From positions 15,198-79,197 of the forward strand of contig DASTKA010000867.1 of NCBI GenBank assembly GCA_035716165.1: DNA of 64,000 bases, given 5' to 3'. The notes under the pieces were generated by a model. That model worked only from the letters and a program-made list of their open reading frames with translations, did no database searches and had not been told where the DNA came from. Source of the DNA: Mycobacterium sp. (lineage in GTDB: Bacteria > Actinomycetota > Actinomycetes > Mycobacteriales > Mycobacteriaceae). The position numbers and the translations under genes are program-made. Shown here piece by piece: positions 8,708 through 63,823 of this stretch (the first letter of the stretch is position 1; every line of letters starts with the position of its first letter).

Positions 8708-8962
8708 GTGGAAAGCGTGAGTATGGCGAAGAAGAAGCAACCAAAGCCGCAGTACGTGATCAAATGGCCACTCGATCCGGTCAGCTACTTCAAGCAGATG
8801 ACCAAGATCGGCCCCGCGTTCGGCGCGACGCTGGACGATGCCAGGAAGTTCGACAGCGAACGGGAGGCTGGCGAGGCCTATGCTCGGTTCCGGGCCGGAG
8901 CCGTCGTTGCTGAGATCTGCCTGGAGTCCGACGAGCGCACGGCGCAGGAGCGTGGGCTGTGA
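8708..8962 (+). CDS. Hypothetical protein
   Basis: Immediately after promoter; stop overlaps next GTG; alternative ATG at 8723. Confidence 0.65.
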   Translation: MESVSMAKKKQPKPQYVIKWPLDPVSYFKQMTKIGPAFGATLDDARKFDSEREAGEAYARFRAGAVVAEICLESDERTAQERGL

Positions 8963-9897
8963 GGAGCATCAGTGTCCGTCTTTCCGTCACTATCGCCTTC
9001 GTCGTCATCGGCGCGCTCGGCGTCGCCGGCGTGTTCGTCGCCCATCGCGAGGTCCAAGTGGTCCAGGAGCTGGTCCTGCGCGACGCCTCGTCGCTGGCCG
9101 TGGCGGGTGCCGCGGGATACTCGCGGATCCTCGACGATGCGGTCGACTCTGGGAAGCTCGCCATCGACGACATCACGCAGCCGAAGCTCGAGGAGATCAA
9201 GTACGCGTTCGACGTCAGCGACAAGCGGTACCGCTCGAAGCTGAGCGACTACACCGACTCGCACGGCGTCCAGGCGTTCGAGGACGCGCTTCTCGAGTCC
9301 TGCGACGGGTGCTTGTTCGCGTCGGGCATGCGGCGTGGCGGGTATGTGCCGACGACAAACGCGAAGCAAGATCTGGCGCCGACGGGCGACGTCGATCGCG
9401 ATCGGCGCGTCGCGCGCGGCAAGCGCGTCTACGACGGCGCCGAGCAACTCGCCGCGGCTGGATTTACCGGCGGCCAGAAGGCGCCGGTGCTGATCCAAAC
9501 CTACCCGCGCGACACTGGCGAGCTGGCGTGGGATGTCGCCGCGCCGATCTTCGTCCACGGCCAGCACTTCGGCGCGTTTCGGATCGGTGTGTCGCAGGAC
9601 CGCATCAACGCGCAGTGGGTCGACCTCTTGTGGCGGCTGTCGGTGTCGTTCGGGTTCGTCGCCGGCGTGACCGTGCTCGCGATCTTCCTGGCCACCCGGG
9701 CTCGGCTGCGGCGGCTCGTGACGCTGACCGCGGCGGCGAACCACATGAGCCAGAGCTACGAGGCCCTGGCAGAGGCGATCCCGGTCGACGACGGAACGGA
9801 GCTCGGGCTCCTCGCACGCGCGCTGAACCGACTGCGCGTGTCGCTCAAAGCGGCGATGGACTACGCGGACCGGCCGCGCACCAACAGGGAGGGATGA
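8959..9897 (+). CDS. TM-sensor-TM-HAMP protein (chemoreceptor-type sensor domain, no output domain)
   Basis: Two TM helices flank GYVPT.N...TGD...R.KR...QTYPRDTGE..WDVAAPIFVHGQHFGAFRIG; HAMP signature ELGLLARALNRL; stop follows shortly. Confidence 0.8.
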   Translation: MRSISVRLSVTIAFVVIGALGVAGVFVAHREVQVVQELVLRDASSLAVAGAAGYSRILDDAVDSGKLAIDDITQPKLEEIKYAFDVSDKRYRSKLSDYTDSHGVQAFEDALLESCDGCLFASGMRRGGYVPTTNAKQDLAPTGDVDRDRRVARGKRVYDGAEQLAAAGFTGGQKAPVLIQTYPRDTGELAWDVAAPIFVHGQHFGAFRIGVSQDRINAQWVDLLWRLSVSFGFVAGVTVLAIFLATRARLRRLVTLTAAANHMSQSYEALAEAIPVDDGTELGLLARALNRLRVSLKAAMDYADRPRTNREG

Positions 9898-10884: not shown

Positions 10885-11381
10885 CGCTGACTGTCGTCAC
10901 CGCGGAGTGGCGCCGCGCCGTCGTTGAGCGGCTCGACGATCTCGGCATGTCGCGAAGCGCGCTGGCTCGGACGATCGAAACCAGCGTGACACAGGTGTGC
11001 GGACTGCTCTCCGGCAAAAGCGATCGCAGCGCCTTTGTCGAACGCATCAACGAGGTGCTCCGCATCACCACGGTGGATCTGGACACCGCCGAGTCGCGTT
11101 CTCCGCTCGCGCTCGTGCCCGATCCGGACATCGAGCGGATCGCCGAGCTTCGCGCCGCCAGCGACGAGATCGCGGCGGATATCCAGCGGCTCGAGGCGGC
11201 ACAAGCTGCGGTCGCCGATCGGCTGTCGGAAGCGCGGCAGGCCCACGCCGAGATGCAGGCTGAGATCCGACAGCGCCGCGCTCGTATCCATCCGACAGCC
11301 CTCGACGATGCGCGCCAGCTGCGCGAGCGCACCGATGCGTTGCGCGCGGACGCGGCACGGGCAATGGAAGAACGCGGATGA
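10881..11381 (+). CDS. XRE/Cro-like HTH protein with coiled-coil C-terminus
   Basis: LGMSRSALARTIETSVTQVCGLLSGK HTH pattern. Confidence 0.7.
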   Translation: MTLTVVTAEWRRAVVERLDDLGMSRSALARTIETSVTQVCGLLSGKSDRSAFVERINEVLRITTVDLDTAESRSPLALVPDPDIERIAELRAASDEIAADIQRLEAAQAAVADRLSEARQAHAEMQAEIRQRRARIHPTALDDARQLRERTDALRADAARAMEERG

Positions 11382-22373: not shown

Positions 22374-25300
22374 GTGGTGGCGGATCTCGATTCTCTGGCA
22401 GGTCGTACCCTGGGCGCGTTCGTCCTCGGCGCTCGTCTCGACGAAGGCGGTTTCGGCGCGGTGTACGCCGCGCGGCAGCCGCTCCTCGATCGGGATGTCG
22501 TCGTCAAGGTGATCGAGCCGCGCGACGCCGACGACGTGAGCGCGCTCGAGCGGTTTCGTCGGGAGGCGCTGCTCGCTGCCCGGCTCGAGCACCACTACGC
22601 CGCCCGCGTCTACGACGCCGGCATCGACGGGCAGCTCCTCTGGATCGCGATGGAGCGGATCCGCGGCGTCACCCTCGCCGATCACCTCGCCAAGCATGGT
22701 CGGATGCTGCTCGATCAGTTCGTGCCGCTTTTCGAGCGAATCGCCGAGGCCGTCCATGCCGCGCACGCGCTGGGGATCGTCCATCGCGATCTAAAGCCGG
22801 CCAACATCATGGTCATCGATACCCCGCGGGGCCTCGTGCCGAAGCTCCTCGATCTGGGGATTGCCAAGCTGGCAGGCGATGCCGCCCCGGACTGGCCGGC
22901 AGGATCTGGCACCGGCCACAGCAACTCCCGGCTCACGCCGGCCGGATTCACAATCGGCTCACCGCCATACATGGCGCCTGAGCAGTGGAGCGATCCATCG
23001 GCTGTCGGGCCTGAGGCCGATCTGTACGCGCTCGGCGTCATCGCCTACGAGGCGCTGACCGGGCATCCGCCGTACGACGTCGACACGCCCGAGGCGCTGG
23101 CGACGTTGCATCTCCACGCTCCGATCCCGCGGGTTGGGGATCCAGGCGTCGATCGCGTCATCGCGCGGGCGCTGGCGAAGCGTGCCGCGGACCGCTGGCG
23201 ATCGGCGCTTGACATGGCCGCCGCGCTTCGCGGGGAAATCGATGCCCATCTCGCCGGCCGGCTCCGCACCGCGGCTCAGCAGTGGAACGGCCGCGGGCGC
23301 ACGCGGGCGATGCTGTGGCGTGACGAGGTTCTCGCCGAGGCCGAGCTGTGGGCCGAGCGCAGCGGACGCGCGGTGCTGTCGGTCGTCGAGATCGAGTTCC
23401 TGGACGCGAGCCGCGGGGCGGCAGACGACGCCGCCGAGAGTGCCGCCAGCCGCCGGCGCTGGTTCCGCCGACTGGCGATCGCGGTCGGGGTGACGGTCGT
23501 AGTTGGCGCCGCGGCGATCCAGCATTCCCGTACTCAGCTGCGCGCCGACGCGCTCGAGGAAGAGGCTCAGCTGGCCCAGCAGTACGCCGCGCAGGTCGCG
23601 CGGGCGGCTGAACTCGAGCAGGGGCGGCAGGCGCTGCTGCATGGCGAACTCGCCGACGCCCGCCAGCACCTCGGGGCGGCGTGGCGGGCCGGCGATCGAT
23701 CGCCGGGGACTGCGTTCATGCTTGGGCGCGCGCGCCAACCGCTGGCGGCGGAGCGAGCGCGGCTCGCGGCCACGAGCGGCCGGGCATGGTTGGCGGCGTA
23801 CTCGCCGGACGGGCGGCGGCTGGCCACCACCGACGACGCTGGCGCCGAGATCTGGGACGCGGCGACACACGGGCTGCAGGTCAGGATCCGTAGCGATCAT
23901 CCGGTGTTCGCCGCGGCGTGGCTGGGGGGCGAGCGACTCGCGACCGTCTCGAGCGACGCGGTGCGGGTCTGGGACGCGACCACCGGCGCGTCCGTGCGCC
24001 AGATGGCCGCGCCTCGCCTCGACGGTCGCGCGCTCGCCTACTACCGGCTTGCGGTGTCCGGTGACCGAATTGCGGCACTCGACGGCGACGGCGACGAGGT
24101 CCACATCTGGTCGGTGGCGACCGGGACAGTGCTTGCGCGGCTGCCCCTTGGCCCCGGCCAGAGCTACCCGGCGATCGCATTCAGCGCCGACGGCCGCTGG
24201 CTCGCTGCGACAGGCGGCACCGACGCGCAGATCTGGTCGACGTCGAGCTGGCGGCTCGCGCAGATACTGCGCGCGGACCGCATCCGCGGCTTCGCCTGGT
24301 CGCCGGGGGTTCCGCGGCTGGCGCTGGGGACCGCCGACGGGATGCTCGAGGTCGTCGAGCCGGCCGGGCCGGCGCGAGTGCTGCGCTACGCCGGCGACGG
24401 TGTCAGCGCGCTTGCGTGGTCACCCGACGGCACCCGGATCGCCATCGGCTTCGACGACGGCGCCGAGCATGTCCTCGACGCCGCGACAGGTCGGGTCACC
24501 GCGCGCGCCCGGTATCTCGCAGGCGCCGTGGCGCCGATCGTCTGGCGTCCCGACGGCGAGGCGATCGCCGCATCGACGCCTATCGGGGCGATCGCGGTCG
24601 CCACCGCTGATCTCGGTCTACCGATAGCGGTGATCGATGGCGCCGCGGCGCCGCGCCGCATCACGTGGCGGCCGGACGGCGGCGAGCTTGCCGTTGCGAC
24701 GACCGATGGGCAGACCCGGCTCTGGGATCCTGGCGCGCCCTACCTGCGCTGGCGCACCGCGGCTGCAGCGCCCGACGGTTGCGGGATCCTTGGCGGCGCC
24801 GCGCCTGATGGTCGCATCGTCGCCGTACCGTGCCGCGGTGCGCCGACGCGGGTCTACGACACGACCACAGGCGCGCTGCTCGCCGAACTTCCCGCGGCTG
24901 AGCCTCTGACCGGCGACGTCGCGCTCGCGCTGCCGGTGGTTTCCGCCACAGGCGACCGGGCGGCGATCGCGCGCGGCGCTGCGGCCGAGGTCTACGATCT
25001 GCCCGGCGGCCGACGGCTGGCGGCGCAGACGCACGCCGCGCCGGTGACTGCACTGGCCTTCGCCGGCGGAGATCTCGCGAGCGGCGACGCCGCGGGCGGG
25101 CTCATGCTCGGCGATCGCCCGCTGCCGCCGAGCCGCGCTGCCGTGGACGCGATCGGCGTCACCGCCGACGGCCGGATCGTGGTCGTCGACGCGGAGCGGC
25201 GCCTGCGTATCCTCGCCGCCGATGGCGCGCCGATCGCCGACCTCGAGATGCCGGTGCGCGCCCGCGCTTTGCGGTTCTCGGCCGACGGCCGGCGTATCGT

Positions 25301-25772
25301 GTCCGTGGCCGCGCGCGCCGCGGCGCCGGCGCCGCCGACACTCTGGGCACTGGATCCACCGCGGATCATGGCCACGCTCGGCGCGCAGCCCGGCGAGGTA
25401 ATCGGCGTGCGCTTCACCGCGCGCGGCGTTCTTACCTCCGGCGCCAACGGCGCGATCCAGCTCTGGGACGCAGAGCACGGCCGGCCGTTGCAGGCGTACC
25501 CCGGTGCGCGCCGCCTGCTCGACGCCGACGCCGCTGGCGATCTGGTGATCGGTGCGTCGGACGACGGCTCGGTGCGATTCTGGGACGCGAGCTCCGCGCG
25601 CCTACTCTGGACGCTACCGACGCACACGGCCGCCGTTGTCGGAGTGCGTCTAGACGGTAACTCGCTGATCACGCGAGGTTTCTCCGGTGACGTCGCACGC
25701 TGGACGTGGCCGCGAGCGTGCGGTGAGACGGGTGTCCCGGGACAGGTCAGCTGCGATACGGTGCAACCATGA
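22374..25772 (+). CDS. Hanks-type Ser/Thr protein kinase - TM - WD40 beta-propeller receptor
   Basis: GGFGAVY, VVVK, HRDLKPAN, DLG, GSPPYMAPE, DLYALG; TM LAIAVGVTVVVGAAAI; many (W/F/Y)SPDG...WD repeats. Confidence 0.93.
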   Translation: MVADLDSLAGRTLGAFVLGARLDEGGFGAVYAARQPLLDRDVVVKVIEPRDADDVSALERFRREALLAARLEHHYAARVYDAGIDGQLLWIAMERIRGVTLADHLAKHGRMLLDQFVPLFERIAEAVHAAHALGIVHRDLKPANIMVIDTPRGLVPKLLDLGIAKLAGDAAPDWPAGSGTGHSNSRLTPAGFTIGSPPYMAPEQWSDPSAVGPEADLYALGVIAYEALTGHPPYDVDTPEALATLHLHAPIPRVGDPGVDRVIARALAKRAADRWRSALDMAAALRGEIDAHLAGRLRTAAQQWNGRGRTRAMLWRDEVLAEAELWAERSGRAVLSVVEIEFLDASRGAADDAAESAASRRRWFRRLAIAVGVTVVVGAAAIQHSRTQLRADALEEEAQLAQQYAAQVARAAELEQGRQALLHGELADARQHLGAAWRAGDRSPGTAFMLGRARQPLAAERARLAATSGRAWLAAYSPDGRRLATTDDAGAEIWDAATHGLQVRIRSDHPVFAAAWLGGERLATVSSDAVRVWDATTGASVRQMAAPRLDGRALAYYRLAVSGDRIAALDGDGDEVHIWSVATGTVLARLPLGPGQSYPAIAFSADGRWLAATGGTDAQIWSTSSWRLAQILRADRIRGFAWSPGVPRLALGTADGMLEVVEPAGPARVLRYAGDGVSALAWSPDGTRIAIGFDDGAEHVLDAATGRVTARARYLAGAVAPIVWRPDGEAIAASTPIGAIAVATADLGLPIAVIDGAAAPRRITWRPDGGELAVATTDGQTRLWDPGAPYLRWRTAAAAPDGCGILGGAAPDGRIVAVPCRGAPTRVYDTTTGALLAELPAAEPLTGDVALALPVVSATGDRAAIARGAAAEVYDLPGGRRLAAQTHAAPVTALAFAGGDLASGDAAGGLMLGDRPLPPSRAAVDAIGVTADGRIVVVDAERRLRILAADGAPIADLEMPVRARALRFSADGRRIVSVAARAAAPAPPTLWALDPPRIMATLGAQPGEVIGVRFTARGVLTSGANGAIQLWDAEHGRPLQAYPGARRLLDADAAGDLVIGASDDGSVRFWDASSARLLWTLPTHTAAVVGVRLDGNSLITRGFSGDVARWTWPRACGETGVPGQVSCDTVQP

Positions 25773-25933
25773 GGAAATCCACGAAGCTGAAATTGCGTCC
25801 CGATACGCTGCGTTTGCTCGCCGGGGTGGAACTCCGCGGCGTGGCCGGCGGCGATGGCCCCGAGAGCGGCACCCAGCAGTGCAACTGCCCGGCTCCGCTG
25901 GCGGTCGCGGTGACTCAGACCTGCGGCGGGTGA
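25769..25933 (+). CDS. 54-aa double-glycine-leader peptide precursor (not in ORF track)
   Basis: MRKSTKLKLRPDTLRLLAGVELRGVAGG|DGPESGTQQCNCPAPLAVAVTQTCGG; ATG overlaps kinase TGA. Confidence 0.8.
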   Translation: MRKSTKLKLRPDTLRLLAGVELRGVAGGDGPESGTQQCNCPAPLAVAVTQTCGG

Positions 25934-62753: not shown

Positions 62754-62965
62754 CGCGGGCCGAGCAGCCAGCCGAGCGCGAACCACTCGGCGGCAGCGAG
62801 CACGGCAAGCGACACTGCGATCCCGGGCCAGCGAACGATGAGCGTCGTACTCGAGCCGTCGCGGCGGAACCAGCCGAGGGCCAGCGGCACCCGATCGCGC
62901 CGGCACGACGCCTTCCACGCGGCAGCGTCGCCGTCTCCGCGCACCACATACCCCAGCGCCCTCAC
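62747..62965 (-). CDS. Small membrane protein
   Basis: GTGA overlap; C-terminal TM. Confidence 0.45.
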   Translation of the reverse strand: MRALGYVVRGDGDAAAWKASCRRDRVPLALGWFRRDGSSTTLIVRWPGIAVSLAVLAAAEWFALGWLLGPRC

Positions 62966-63360
62966 GCCGGCTGTGTCCCGGTCGGCCCGACGCCGTTCCA
63001 GCTCACACCCGAGACGTCGGCCGGCGCCGGCGAAGTCCCGGTGAACGTCACGGTGCCAGTGCGGCCCGCGGCGCTGATCCGGACGCTCCACGGCTGGGCG
63101 GTCTGAACCACGCCGGGCGCGAAGCGCAGGACGCGCGCTCCATCTTGGGTGACAGCGATCTGGGTGATCGTCACCGCGGCAGGCGTCGCGCCATCGGCAC
63201 CGCCCTGCAGGTACGTGAACGTCAGCGGGGTGTCCCGATCGATCGCGCCCGGGTTCGCGCCGGTGACCGGATCCACGGCGTTGGCGGTGACGGTGACCTC
63301 GGCGTACTGGGCAGCACGGGTTGCGGGGTCGAAGTTGATGGCGGGAGGAGTGTTTGACAT
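62962..63360 (-). CDS. Beta-rich hypothetical protein
   Basis: TTGGCC...CACCAT-N7-ATG leaderless-type start; T/A/P/V-rich. Confidence 0.65.
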   Translation of the reverse strand: MSNTPPAINFDPATRAAQYAEVTVTANAVDPVTGANPGAIDRDTPLTFTYLQGGADGATPAAVTITQIAVTQDGARVLRFAPGVVQTAQPWSVRISAAGRTGTVTFTGTSPAPADVSGVSWNGVGPTGTQPA

Positions 63361-63465
63361 GCGACAGATGGTGGCCTGCGGGCGCGGAGCGGGCCAATTG
63401 CAGAGTGGGGACCGGTACTTGTGAATCTCACGTATTGCAAATCTCGCTCGAGGCGCATACGAGCT

Positions 63466-63708
63466 ATGCATCAGACAGCCAAGAAGAAGCTCGTCCTTCG
63501 CAAAATCACCCTCCGCGATCTCGCCAACGTGCGCGGCGCCGCTGACGGAAACACTGTAGGTAACTGCAACACCGCTGCGGTGTGCTTCCCGAGTACCATT
63601 GCCACTGGCAACGGATGCGGCACGGTGACGTGCATGCTCTGCAGCAACTCCACAGGAGGAAGCGTCGCCAGCAACGGGTGCGGCGACAACAGCATCAGTC
63701 CAGTCTGA
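63466..63708 (+). CDS. 80-aa RiPP-like precursor peptide (GA-type leader, Cys/Ser/Thr/Asn/Gly-rich core)
   Basis: MHQTAKKKLVLRKITLRDLANVRGA|ADGNTVGNCNTAAVC...; 6 Cys; followed by terminator. Confidence 0.8.
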   Translation: MHQTAKKKLVLRKITLRDLANVRGAADGNTVGNCNTAAVCFPSTIATGNGCGTVTCMLCSNSTGGSVASNGCGDNSISPV

Positions 63709-63727
63709 GTCGATCGCCGCGTAGTCG

Positions 63728-63761
63728 CGACCCGCTGGGCGAGAAGCTCAGCGGGTCGTTT
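63728..63761 (+). terminator. Intrinsic terminator-like hairpin
   Basis: CGACCCGCTGGGC-GAGAA-GCTCAGCGGGTCG followed by TTTGTCGTT. Confidence 0.7.
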
Positions 63762-63794
63762 GTCGTTGCGGGACCGGTACTTGTGAGTTTGCGG

Positions 63795-63823
63795 TTGCGC
63801 GTCGGCGAATTTGTAGCTAGTTT
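63795..63823 (+). promoter_or_regulatory. Sigma70-like promoter TTGCGC-N17-TAGTTT
   Basis: 17-nt spacer, 7 nt before ATG 63831. Confidence 0.6.

Follow-up and report, generated by a model that had tools for sequence, protein, structure and literature searches.

A temperate soil phage, in all likelihood of a Kofleriaceae host, carries a moron-like gene for what appears to be an orphan precursor peptide of the lanthipeptide type, ended by a terminator-like hairpin and flanked by exact direct repeats. The gene lies in a stretch of 64,000 nucleotides, here termed the window. Under the explanation favoured here, which is held tentatively as a whole, the precursor would be matured by host enzymes and exported, probably to act as a mimic of host peptide signals. 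The parts are of known kinds, and their combination appears to be undescribed. Searches of the open literature, with subscription journals mostly outside its scope, for phage-encoded orphan lanthipeptide precursors and for RiPP precursors from Kofleriaceae or Myxococcota gave no account of such an arrangement, and the accessible part of one related study ties RiPPs to phages by co-expression only (PMC11118758).

The contig that holds the window (C867) is 91,679 bp long with a terminal overlap of 141 bp, indicating a circular molecule of 91.5 kb. It is considered a complete temperate phage because terminase, portal, capsid and tail proteins, an endolysin, an integrase, a repressor, a primase and a Sak4-like annealing protein are all encoded. 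This circular phage is the largest contig of a 4.06-Mb bin of mycobacterial appearance, with 10 PPE genes, and its own genes point to Myxococcota. The closest records to its kinase-WD40 protein are titled Kofleriaceae, with 41% over 1,100 aa in one of them (L020), which is most of the protein's length. Outside the phage, the bin yielded no leader peptide in a profile search, and no LanB, LanC or C39 domain. Since the kinase-WD40 protein is closest to Kofleriaceae and the rest of the bin is devoid of leader peptides and of LanB, LanC and C39, the contig was probably mis-binned in the reference genome, and a Kofleriaceae (Myxococcota) host is strongly indicated. A mycobacterial host was set aside as a probable artefact of binning, the evidence of the PPE genes being outweighed by the Kofleriaceae-like kinase and the leader. 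Two phage features stand at a distance from the peptide gene.

22374..25772, + strand: Ser/Thr kinase, hydrophobic segment and WD40 protein, closest to Kofleriaceae
25769..25933, + strand: first (kinase-linked) peptide, 54 aa, full-length form of the leader that also begins the 80-aa peptide

In the module at 22374-25933 the leader peptide follows immediately 3' of the kinase-WD40 gene, with a -10-like element 6–7 nt before its ATG, and the same kind of module is seen in host genomes and in one other viral record (L146, L116, L117, L131, L135). Several phage genes have sigma-70-like promoters 6–7 nt before the ATG (window 63360 and 63831; contig 85621 and 84080), which suggests leaderless transcription for them. 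The immunity region of contig C867 (L002:11132-11668) holds four TTCAC-N5-GTGAA dyads, at contig positions 11132, 11167, 11612 and 11654, around divergent HTH genes; these are likely repressor operators. Elsewhere in the window, an ORF at 8959-9897 encodes 312 aa. Its N-terminus is hydrophobic, its codon score is the strongest in the early region and it has no PHROG match; it resembles a fragment of a membrane sensor or chemoreceptor acquired from a host.

The peptide gene and its predicted parts are as follows.

63466..63708, + strand: 80-aa orphan precursor peptide gene with a short variant of the LxLxKx5L/double-glycine leader, predicted from ORF, leader profile and codon use
63466..63540, + strand: predicted 25-aa leader ending in Gly-Ala, placed by its LxLxKx5L fit and C39 register
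63541..63705, + strand: predicted 55-aa core with 6 Cys, 14 Ser/Thr and two imperfect internal repeats ending in NGCG

The peptide starts MHQTAKKKLVLRKITLRDLANVRGA. A composition count bears out the sequence-only reading of an 80-aa frame with a 6-Cys, 55-aa core: the latter contains 6 Cys, 7 Ser, 7 Thr, 7 Asn and 9 Gly, together with 2 Asp, one aromatic and no basic residue, and its internal repeat has p = 0.039. Cys and Ser/Thr are thus both at hand for ring formation, as in class I lanthipeptides, and most Cys are preceded at a distance of a few residues by a Ser or Thr, which is also the pattern in cluster-encoded precursors. Residues 9–19 of the leader, LVLRKITLRDL, are an exact LxLxKx5L fit, and Ile-12, Asp-8, Leu-7 and Val-4 before Gly-Ala reproduce the recognition pattern of C39 peptidases on double-glycine substrates. 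The leader is 5–6 residues shorter than the family norm, and the loss falls between these two motifs. GC3 of the frame is 0.75 and its codon score exceeds that of the three other frames tested; the score itself is negative, at -6.5 against -1 to +12 for six other family members. GC content of the cassette is 60% against 67%, among the lowest 8% of windows compared. The claim that the leader is common to the kinase-linked peptide held up: a leader regular expression gave five matches in the bin, and these two peptides were the only ATG-led ORFs among them. Leave-one-out leader profiles, from which the window peptides were excluded, ranked the 80-aa ORF second (15.2 bits, E 0.06) and first (16.1 bits, E 0.04) of 85,178 bin frames, scores which are modest in themselves, with a background of at most 10.8 bits.

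Motifs of this kind have been described in known precursors. The LxLxKx5L leader belongs to class I lanthipeptide precursors of Bacteroidetes and, in the part of the study consulted, often ends in Gly-Gly, with a C39 protease encoded by the cluster (Walker et al., 2020; PMC7268733), while C39 recognition involves hydrophobic residues at -4, -7 and -12 and a Gly-Gly/Ala/Ser site, according to the accessible part of PMC6363468. On sequence grounds the phage leader is classed as a shortened LxLxKx5L/double-glycine leader of class I lanthipeptide precursors, with the C39 cleavage register retained. A first profile, built from six peptides and applied to five host-type genomes, gave 7–40 matches per genome. 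A second, of 21 sequences, gave 11,338 matches at E <= 0.001 among 1.84 billion representatives at 50% identity, and the strict LxLxKx5L motif is present in 54 of the 150 best profile matches. When 23 peptides were scanned with NF038153 (lant_leader_L1a), 13 reached or exceeded the cut-off, including three of the four cluster-encoded ones; L203, L205 and L206 pass while lying inside LanB/LanC/exporter clusters and matching the same profile. Neither window peptide matched NF038153 (cut-off 22 bits), nor did L220, L144, L145 or L148, and other family members gave weak TIGR04149 matches below cut-off. The 80-aa peptide may be regarded as an NF038153-type precursor by leader motif and register, standing outside scored membership.

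As a whole the peptide is a singleton. It has no match in NCBIfam, Pfam or PHROG families; searches of 5.8 billion proteins and of IMG/VR for a full-length homologue recovered only the protein itself, and neither 60 relatives of the bin (best E 0.003, which is noise) nor 121 Kofleriaceae-family genomes (best E 0.008, none accepted) supplied one. Comparison with 238 family cores gave no convincing match. The best, a 13-residue core beside a kinase-WD40 gene and LanC with 8 of 14 positions identical, is too short to be trusted, and the core of L133, alike by eye, fell outside the top 12 of the core-to-core comparison. AlphaFold2 on the single sequence was uninformative (pLDDT 42).

The sequence-only reading had proposed searching for the leader while recording neighbouring maturase genes. 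When this was done, 103 distinct host peptides from 93 loci were obtained, of which 25 lie beside a LanB, LanC or exporter gene, 28 beside a kinase, WD40, TPR or sigma-54 activator gene, and 50 have no marker gene, the count covering best-scoring matches with 1.5-kb flanks and with seeds drawn partly from kinase loci, which inflates the kinase association of the family. Complete precursor-LanB-LanC arrangements near exporters were found at L203, L205, L206 and L208. The phage itself encodes no LanB, LanC, LanM or C39 protein, so that LanB and LanC are not found at the same locus as the peptide. The proposal of an orphan RiPP precursor reliant on host maturases is therefore supported, because family precursors sit in Kofleriaceae LanB/LanC/exporter clusters, the phage and its bin have no such enzymes, and lone peptides also occur in related phages (see below).

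The enzymes are unevenly spread over 51 genomes of the likely host family: a C39 match is present in 50, with 35 strong ones (E <= 4e-26, long frames), LanB in 25 and LanC in 24, so that about half have no detectable LanB. A single LanB and one exporter is a frequent complement. Genome G089, with one LanB, seven LanC and 33 leader matches, also has a 16-kb LanB/LanC/exporter locus in which no precursor was detected, and this layout fits a few enzymes serving many scattered precursors. The short leader recurs in six host peptides (five in G089, one in G093; counted by eye from the table of 103), all with 4–6 Cys. Five of the six are without marker neighbours, none lies beside LanB or LanC, and two have the Gly-Ala site. 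L149/L220 share with the 80-aa peptide the Gly-Ala site and GNT-G, at 45% over the first 42 aligned residues. Recognition of the short leader by LanB is accordingly described as putative.

As to the class of product, the sequence-only reading had left lanthipeptide and ranthipeptide side by side. The former is favoured, because no radical SAM/SPASM enzyme was found among 73 neighbour ORFs (of 104 candidates; NCBIfam, E 1e-12, 1.5-kb flanks); a ranthipeptide or sactipeptide precursor is disfavoured by the same absence of a maturase beside family members. Pfam, run on 51 neighbour ORFs, gave one radical SAM match, which also carries UPF0004 and is MiaB-like. In the same NCBIfam scan of 73 neighbours, ATP-grasp-like proteins turned up next to Cys-free members, and flavoproteins of LanD-like type next to kinase-WD40/LanC loci. 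The leader appears to be common to several chemistries; leader type does not fix the chemistry, because it also serves other enzymes (ATP-grasp-like, LanD-like). Cys-free, Ser/Thr/Ile-rich repeat cores (GTSVI-like) on this leader occur at L323, L328, L316, L318 and L155, of which L323 and L328 adjoin ATP-grasp-like proteins. A further group (L137, L322, L330, L211, L114) combines a kinase-WD40 gene, LanC, in some cases a LanD-like flavoprotein, and short peptides whose last residue is Cys, LanB being absent from the flanks covered, and is possibly an undescribed type of RiPP cluster in Kofleriaceae.

Around the peptide gene, the following elements were placed.

62962..63360, - strand: left neighbour, conserved 132-aa phage protein of unassigned function, the synteny anchor
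63368..63397, - strand: putative leaderless sigma-70-like promoter of the left neighbour, TTGGCC-N18-CACCAT-N7-ATG, with similar -10/ATG spacing upstream of homologues
63408..63424, + strand: left copy of the 17-bp repeat, 10 nt from the left neighbour's -35-like hexamer and 10 nt from the TTGCAA upstream of the peptide
63435..63463, + strand: TTGCAA-N17-TACGAG, a possible, weak promoter for the peptide, agreeing with the consensus at 7 of 12 positions and lying only 2 nt short of the ATG
63727..63759, + strand: intrinsic-terminator-like hairpin with T-rich tail, 14 pairs, z = -5.2
63770..63786, + strand: right copy of the 17-bp repeat, exact match
63795..63823, + strand: putative leaderless sigma-70-like promoter of the next early gene (ATG 63831), TTGCGC-N17-TAGTTT-N7-ATG, by pattern match only, 8 nt after the right repeat

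The sequence-only reading had called the cassette self-contained. The gene does have its own terminator, as morons do, although shuffled sequence contains terminator-like sites fairly often (0.8 per region). A convincing promoter, on the other hand, could not be identified: the promoter scan made no call at the peptide gene, the best sigma-70-like pair matching at 7 of 12 positions, and no fitting sigma-54 site lies near the ATG. The gene is nevertheless envisaged as a short transcription unit that stops at the hairpin, and its expression is likely.

The repeat, GGGACCGGTACTTGTGA, is present in two exact copies 362 bp apart, as had been reported. No repeat of at least 17 bp arose within 1 kb in any of ten Markov simulations of the contig, which gave 1–6 such repeats at any distance, and a chance origin of the pair is highly improbable. 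With as many as three mismatches allowed, the window contains no further copy of the 17-mer (chance mean 0.05), and the same holds for the 4.06-Mb bin with two allowed, which excludes a genome-wide motif, only two copies being present in the phage genome. It is likewise missing from IMG/VR, from 138 host-family genomes at one mismatch, by which a host element was rejected, and from four related phages at three mismatches. No comparable exact repeat flanks five other family peptides or the kinase module, among the largest repeat families listed.

That the repeats mark the ends of an insertion is somewhat favoured. The insertion would have duplicated a site between two back-to-back promoters, each neighbour retaining a copy; indeed the cassette stands between two divergent phage genes whose promoter patterns begin 10 and 8 nt from the nearer repeat, and the scar interpretation fits since removal of one repeat with the cassette leaves back-to-back promoters with the 17-mer between them. 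The Sak4-like protein could delete the cassette through the repeats. The alternative for the repeats, more doubtful although it deserves weight, is a protein-binding site, for an activator or as part of an alternative-sigma promoter, in which an older duplication was held identical by selection. It is kept in play because similarity of the two copies continues to the left (11 of 20 further bases, p about 0.02) and because each copy stands at a fixed 8–10 nt from a -35-like hexamer; moreover, GGAC-C...N17...[C/G]GT[A/T] is found at both copies, which we take to resemble ECF-sigma promoters. Against this, the right boundary is sharp (6 of 20 bases alike), neither copy has a counterpart at other promoters of the genome, and the 17-mer is absent from the host-family genomes and related phages cited above. 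The suggestion of tandem operators found no support as regards the phage repressor, whose dyad in the immunity region (four copies) is a different motif with no match at the repeats at two mismatches.

Evidence for gain and loss of the gene comes from related loci. Homologues of the left neighbour led to 11 metagenome loci. This protein has seven homologues at 58–71% identity, no PHROG match and a very conserved C-terminal motif, and was seen in phage-like contigs every time. Arrays of about 10–15 imperfect palindromic 18-mers with variable short spacers lie about 500 bp upstream of the homologue at L305, L306, L307, L310, L311 and L312, and may represent iterons, hairpins of the REP type or an array of binding sites. 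One locus, L302, is syntenic: the left neighbour, two genes beyond it and the terminase region are all present, and a 111-bp gap with neither peptide nor 17-mer separates the left-neighbour homologue from a divergent gene. The cassette is thus absent at the same position, as expected of a moron, in this one relative. For the earlier idea of cassette gain and loss, L302 upholds the change at the level of the gene but, being without the 17-mer, not the part in which the repeats are scars or handles. Related phages with a single repeat and no peptide had been suggested as a check; L302 supplies the missing peptide, but no single-copy empty site occurs in the four related phages, the 11 loci, IMG/VR or the 138 host genomes, collections which hold no close relative. 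A form joined across the repeats was also not found in the contigs of one DNA run of possible source, such contigs dropping rare variants, and no weight is placed on this absence.

Lone leader peptides recur in other phages. A clade was set by terminase relatives (62–75% identity) and five of its records were searched whole: a lone leader peptide was found once in G210 and twice in G211, where one of them has the short leader and lies some 8.5 kb upstream of the terminase, and none was found in G209 (73% complete) or G212 (32% complete); a weak match in G208, inside a 644-aa frame, was left out of the counts. Two of three near-complete related phages therefore carry them, one in short form. 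Scanning IMG/VR with DNA patterns brought in L145 and L345, each with 5 Cys, and also L146, whose peptide directly follows a WD40 protein like the window's first peptide. The short-leader pattern had no match in IMG/VR, and L344, one of three matches to a variable-gap pattern, was a false positive. Four other viral records have similar lone peptides, at different positions. As these lone members bear cores unrelated to each other, phage carriage appears to be recurrent and the cores exchangeable.

Phage morons and prophage RiPP clusters, such as sublancin in SPbeta, are known systems for comparison. The cassette resembles them as an extra unit with its own terminator, lower GC and absence from a syntenic relative; unlike sublancin-type clusters it carries the precursor alone, with no modification, export or immunity gene, and is flanked by exact 17-bp repeats. 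Class I LxLxKx5L precursors (PMC7268733; NF038153; pinensin-type), as far as the source was accessible, have in common with the phage peptide the motif, a double-glycine-type site and a Ser/Thr/Cys-rich core, whereas the phage peptide has a leader 5–6 residues shorter, no NF038153 score, no LanB, LanC or C39 gene nearby, and is phage-borne. It is also myxobacterial, while those of PMC7268733 are from Bacteroidetes, 'Myxococc' being absent from that paper's main text. The prochlorosins of Prochlorococcus and Synechococcus (ProcA/ProcM), in the consulted part of PMC10783134, similarly show many hypervariable lone precursors with one conserved leader and one enzyme set, but rely on a class II LanM and a Nif11 leader, in contrast to the class I-type leader, Kofleriaceae hosts, phage-encoded member and presumed action in trans found here. 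Double-glycine pheromones and bacteriocins exported by AMS/PCAT transporters (ComA, LahT; accessible part of PMC6363468) have the hydrophobic -12, -7 and -4 positions, acidic -8 and Gly-Ala in common with the phage peptide. They differ in that the latter has a Gram-negative host and a locus without exporter or two-component system, and host family members often lie beside eukaryote-like kinase-WD40 proteins and sigma-54 activators.

In the mechanism proposed, host LanB would bind the leader and dehydrate Ser/Thr, LanC would close up to six rings, and a host C39 peptidase-exporter would cut at Gly-Ala and secrete the neutral-to-acidic core. Leader cleavage and export are likely; thioether rings in the product are somewhat more probable than their absence. 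Instead of a lanthipeptide, the host peptidase-exporter may release a peptide with three disulfides formed in the periplasm, an unmodified pheromone or bacteriocin-like mini-protein. An even number of Cys, a short leader that keeps the C39 register while the residues between its two motifs are gone, and the greater frequency of exporters than of LanB in the host family all suit this, but the intact LxLxKx5L motif and the Ser/Thr upstream of most Cys do not, and it is considered unlikely. Ranked below it, and quite unlikely, is a decoy role in which the peptide ties up host LanB/LanC or the exporter, cutting the output of host defence or signal peptides. Anti-phage class I lanthipeptide clusters are described for Actinobacteria in the accessible part of a preprint (bioRxiv 10.1101/2024.06.26.600839), a single LanB, common in hosts, is a bottleneck that one peptide could jam, and mutually unrelated phage-borne cores are expected if the leader alone matters. 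A decoy would, however, hardly need the long, structured 6-Cys core with internal repeat that has been retained, and the short leader is also found in host genes, so that it is no crippled form peculiar to phages.

Next in rank, and improbable, is a matured bacteriocin giving lysogens an edge over competitors. Prophage-borne bacteriocins exist, sublancin among them, and the phage is temperate (integrase, repressor), with a terminator and moron-like layout. Antifungal pinensins are among the class I LxLxKx5L relatives in the consulted part of PMC7268733 (family I 17), but the 345-bp cassette has no immunity gene and the core is, in its charge and single aromatic residue, unlike cationic membrane-active peptides. 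Least probable is passive cargo acquired from a host or a different phage, with little or no expression and no advantage, for which the singleton sequence, atypical codon use, want of a clear promoter and absence from the syntenic relative speak, but which sits poorly with the intact frame, leader and cleavage register, the strong terminator and the recurrence of lone members at different positions in at least four other viral records.

The favoured lanthipeptide-type product, once secreted, would act on kinase-WD40 receptors of the host or the phage, mimicking host peptide signals. Signalling, rather than killing or jamming, is put at somewhat under half of the cases in which the peptide has a function. 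It is preferred because TGGCAC-N5-TGCT, which we take as the sigma-54 consensus, lies upstream of two host peptides adjoining sigma-54 activators and would fit an autoinduction loop.

If host enzymes mature the peptide, the phage obtains a modified, secreted natural product at a cost of 360 bases, and phage genomes would then be a hidden source of RiPP cores missed by cluster-based mining and by NF038153. More speculatively, and on balance unlikely, myxobacterial phages may routinely plug lone precursors into a host-wide lanthipeptide network of Kofleriaceae, with one enzyme and many substrates, which doubles as a receptor-kinase signalling code, the present phage sending or jamming host signals through a complete receptor-plus-peptide module and a second, swappable, repeat-bounded cassette. 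The findings point to a large and apparently undescribed peptide system in the Kofleriaceae, in which precursors lie scattered by the dozen, maturases are few and kinase-WD40 receptors and sigma-54 activators are often linked; it can be tested in E. coli with no need for host culture.
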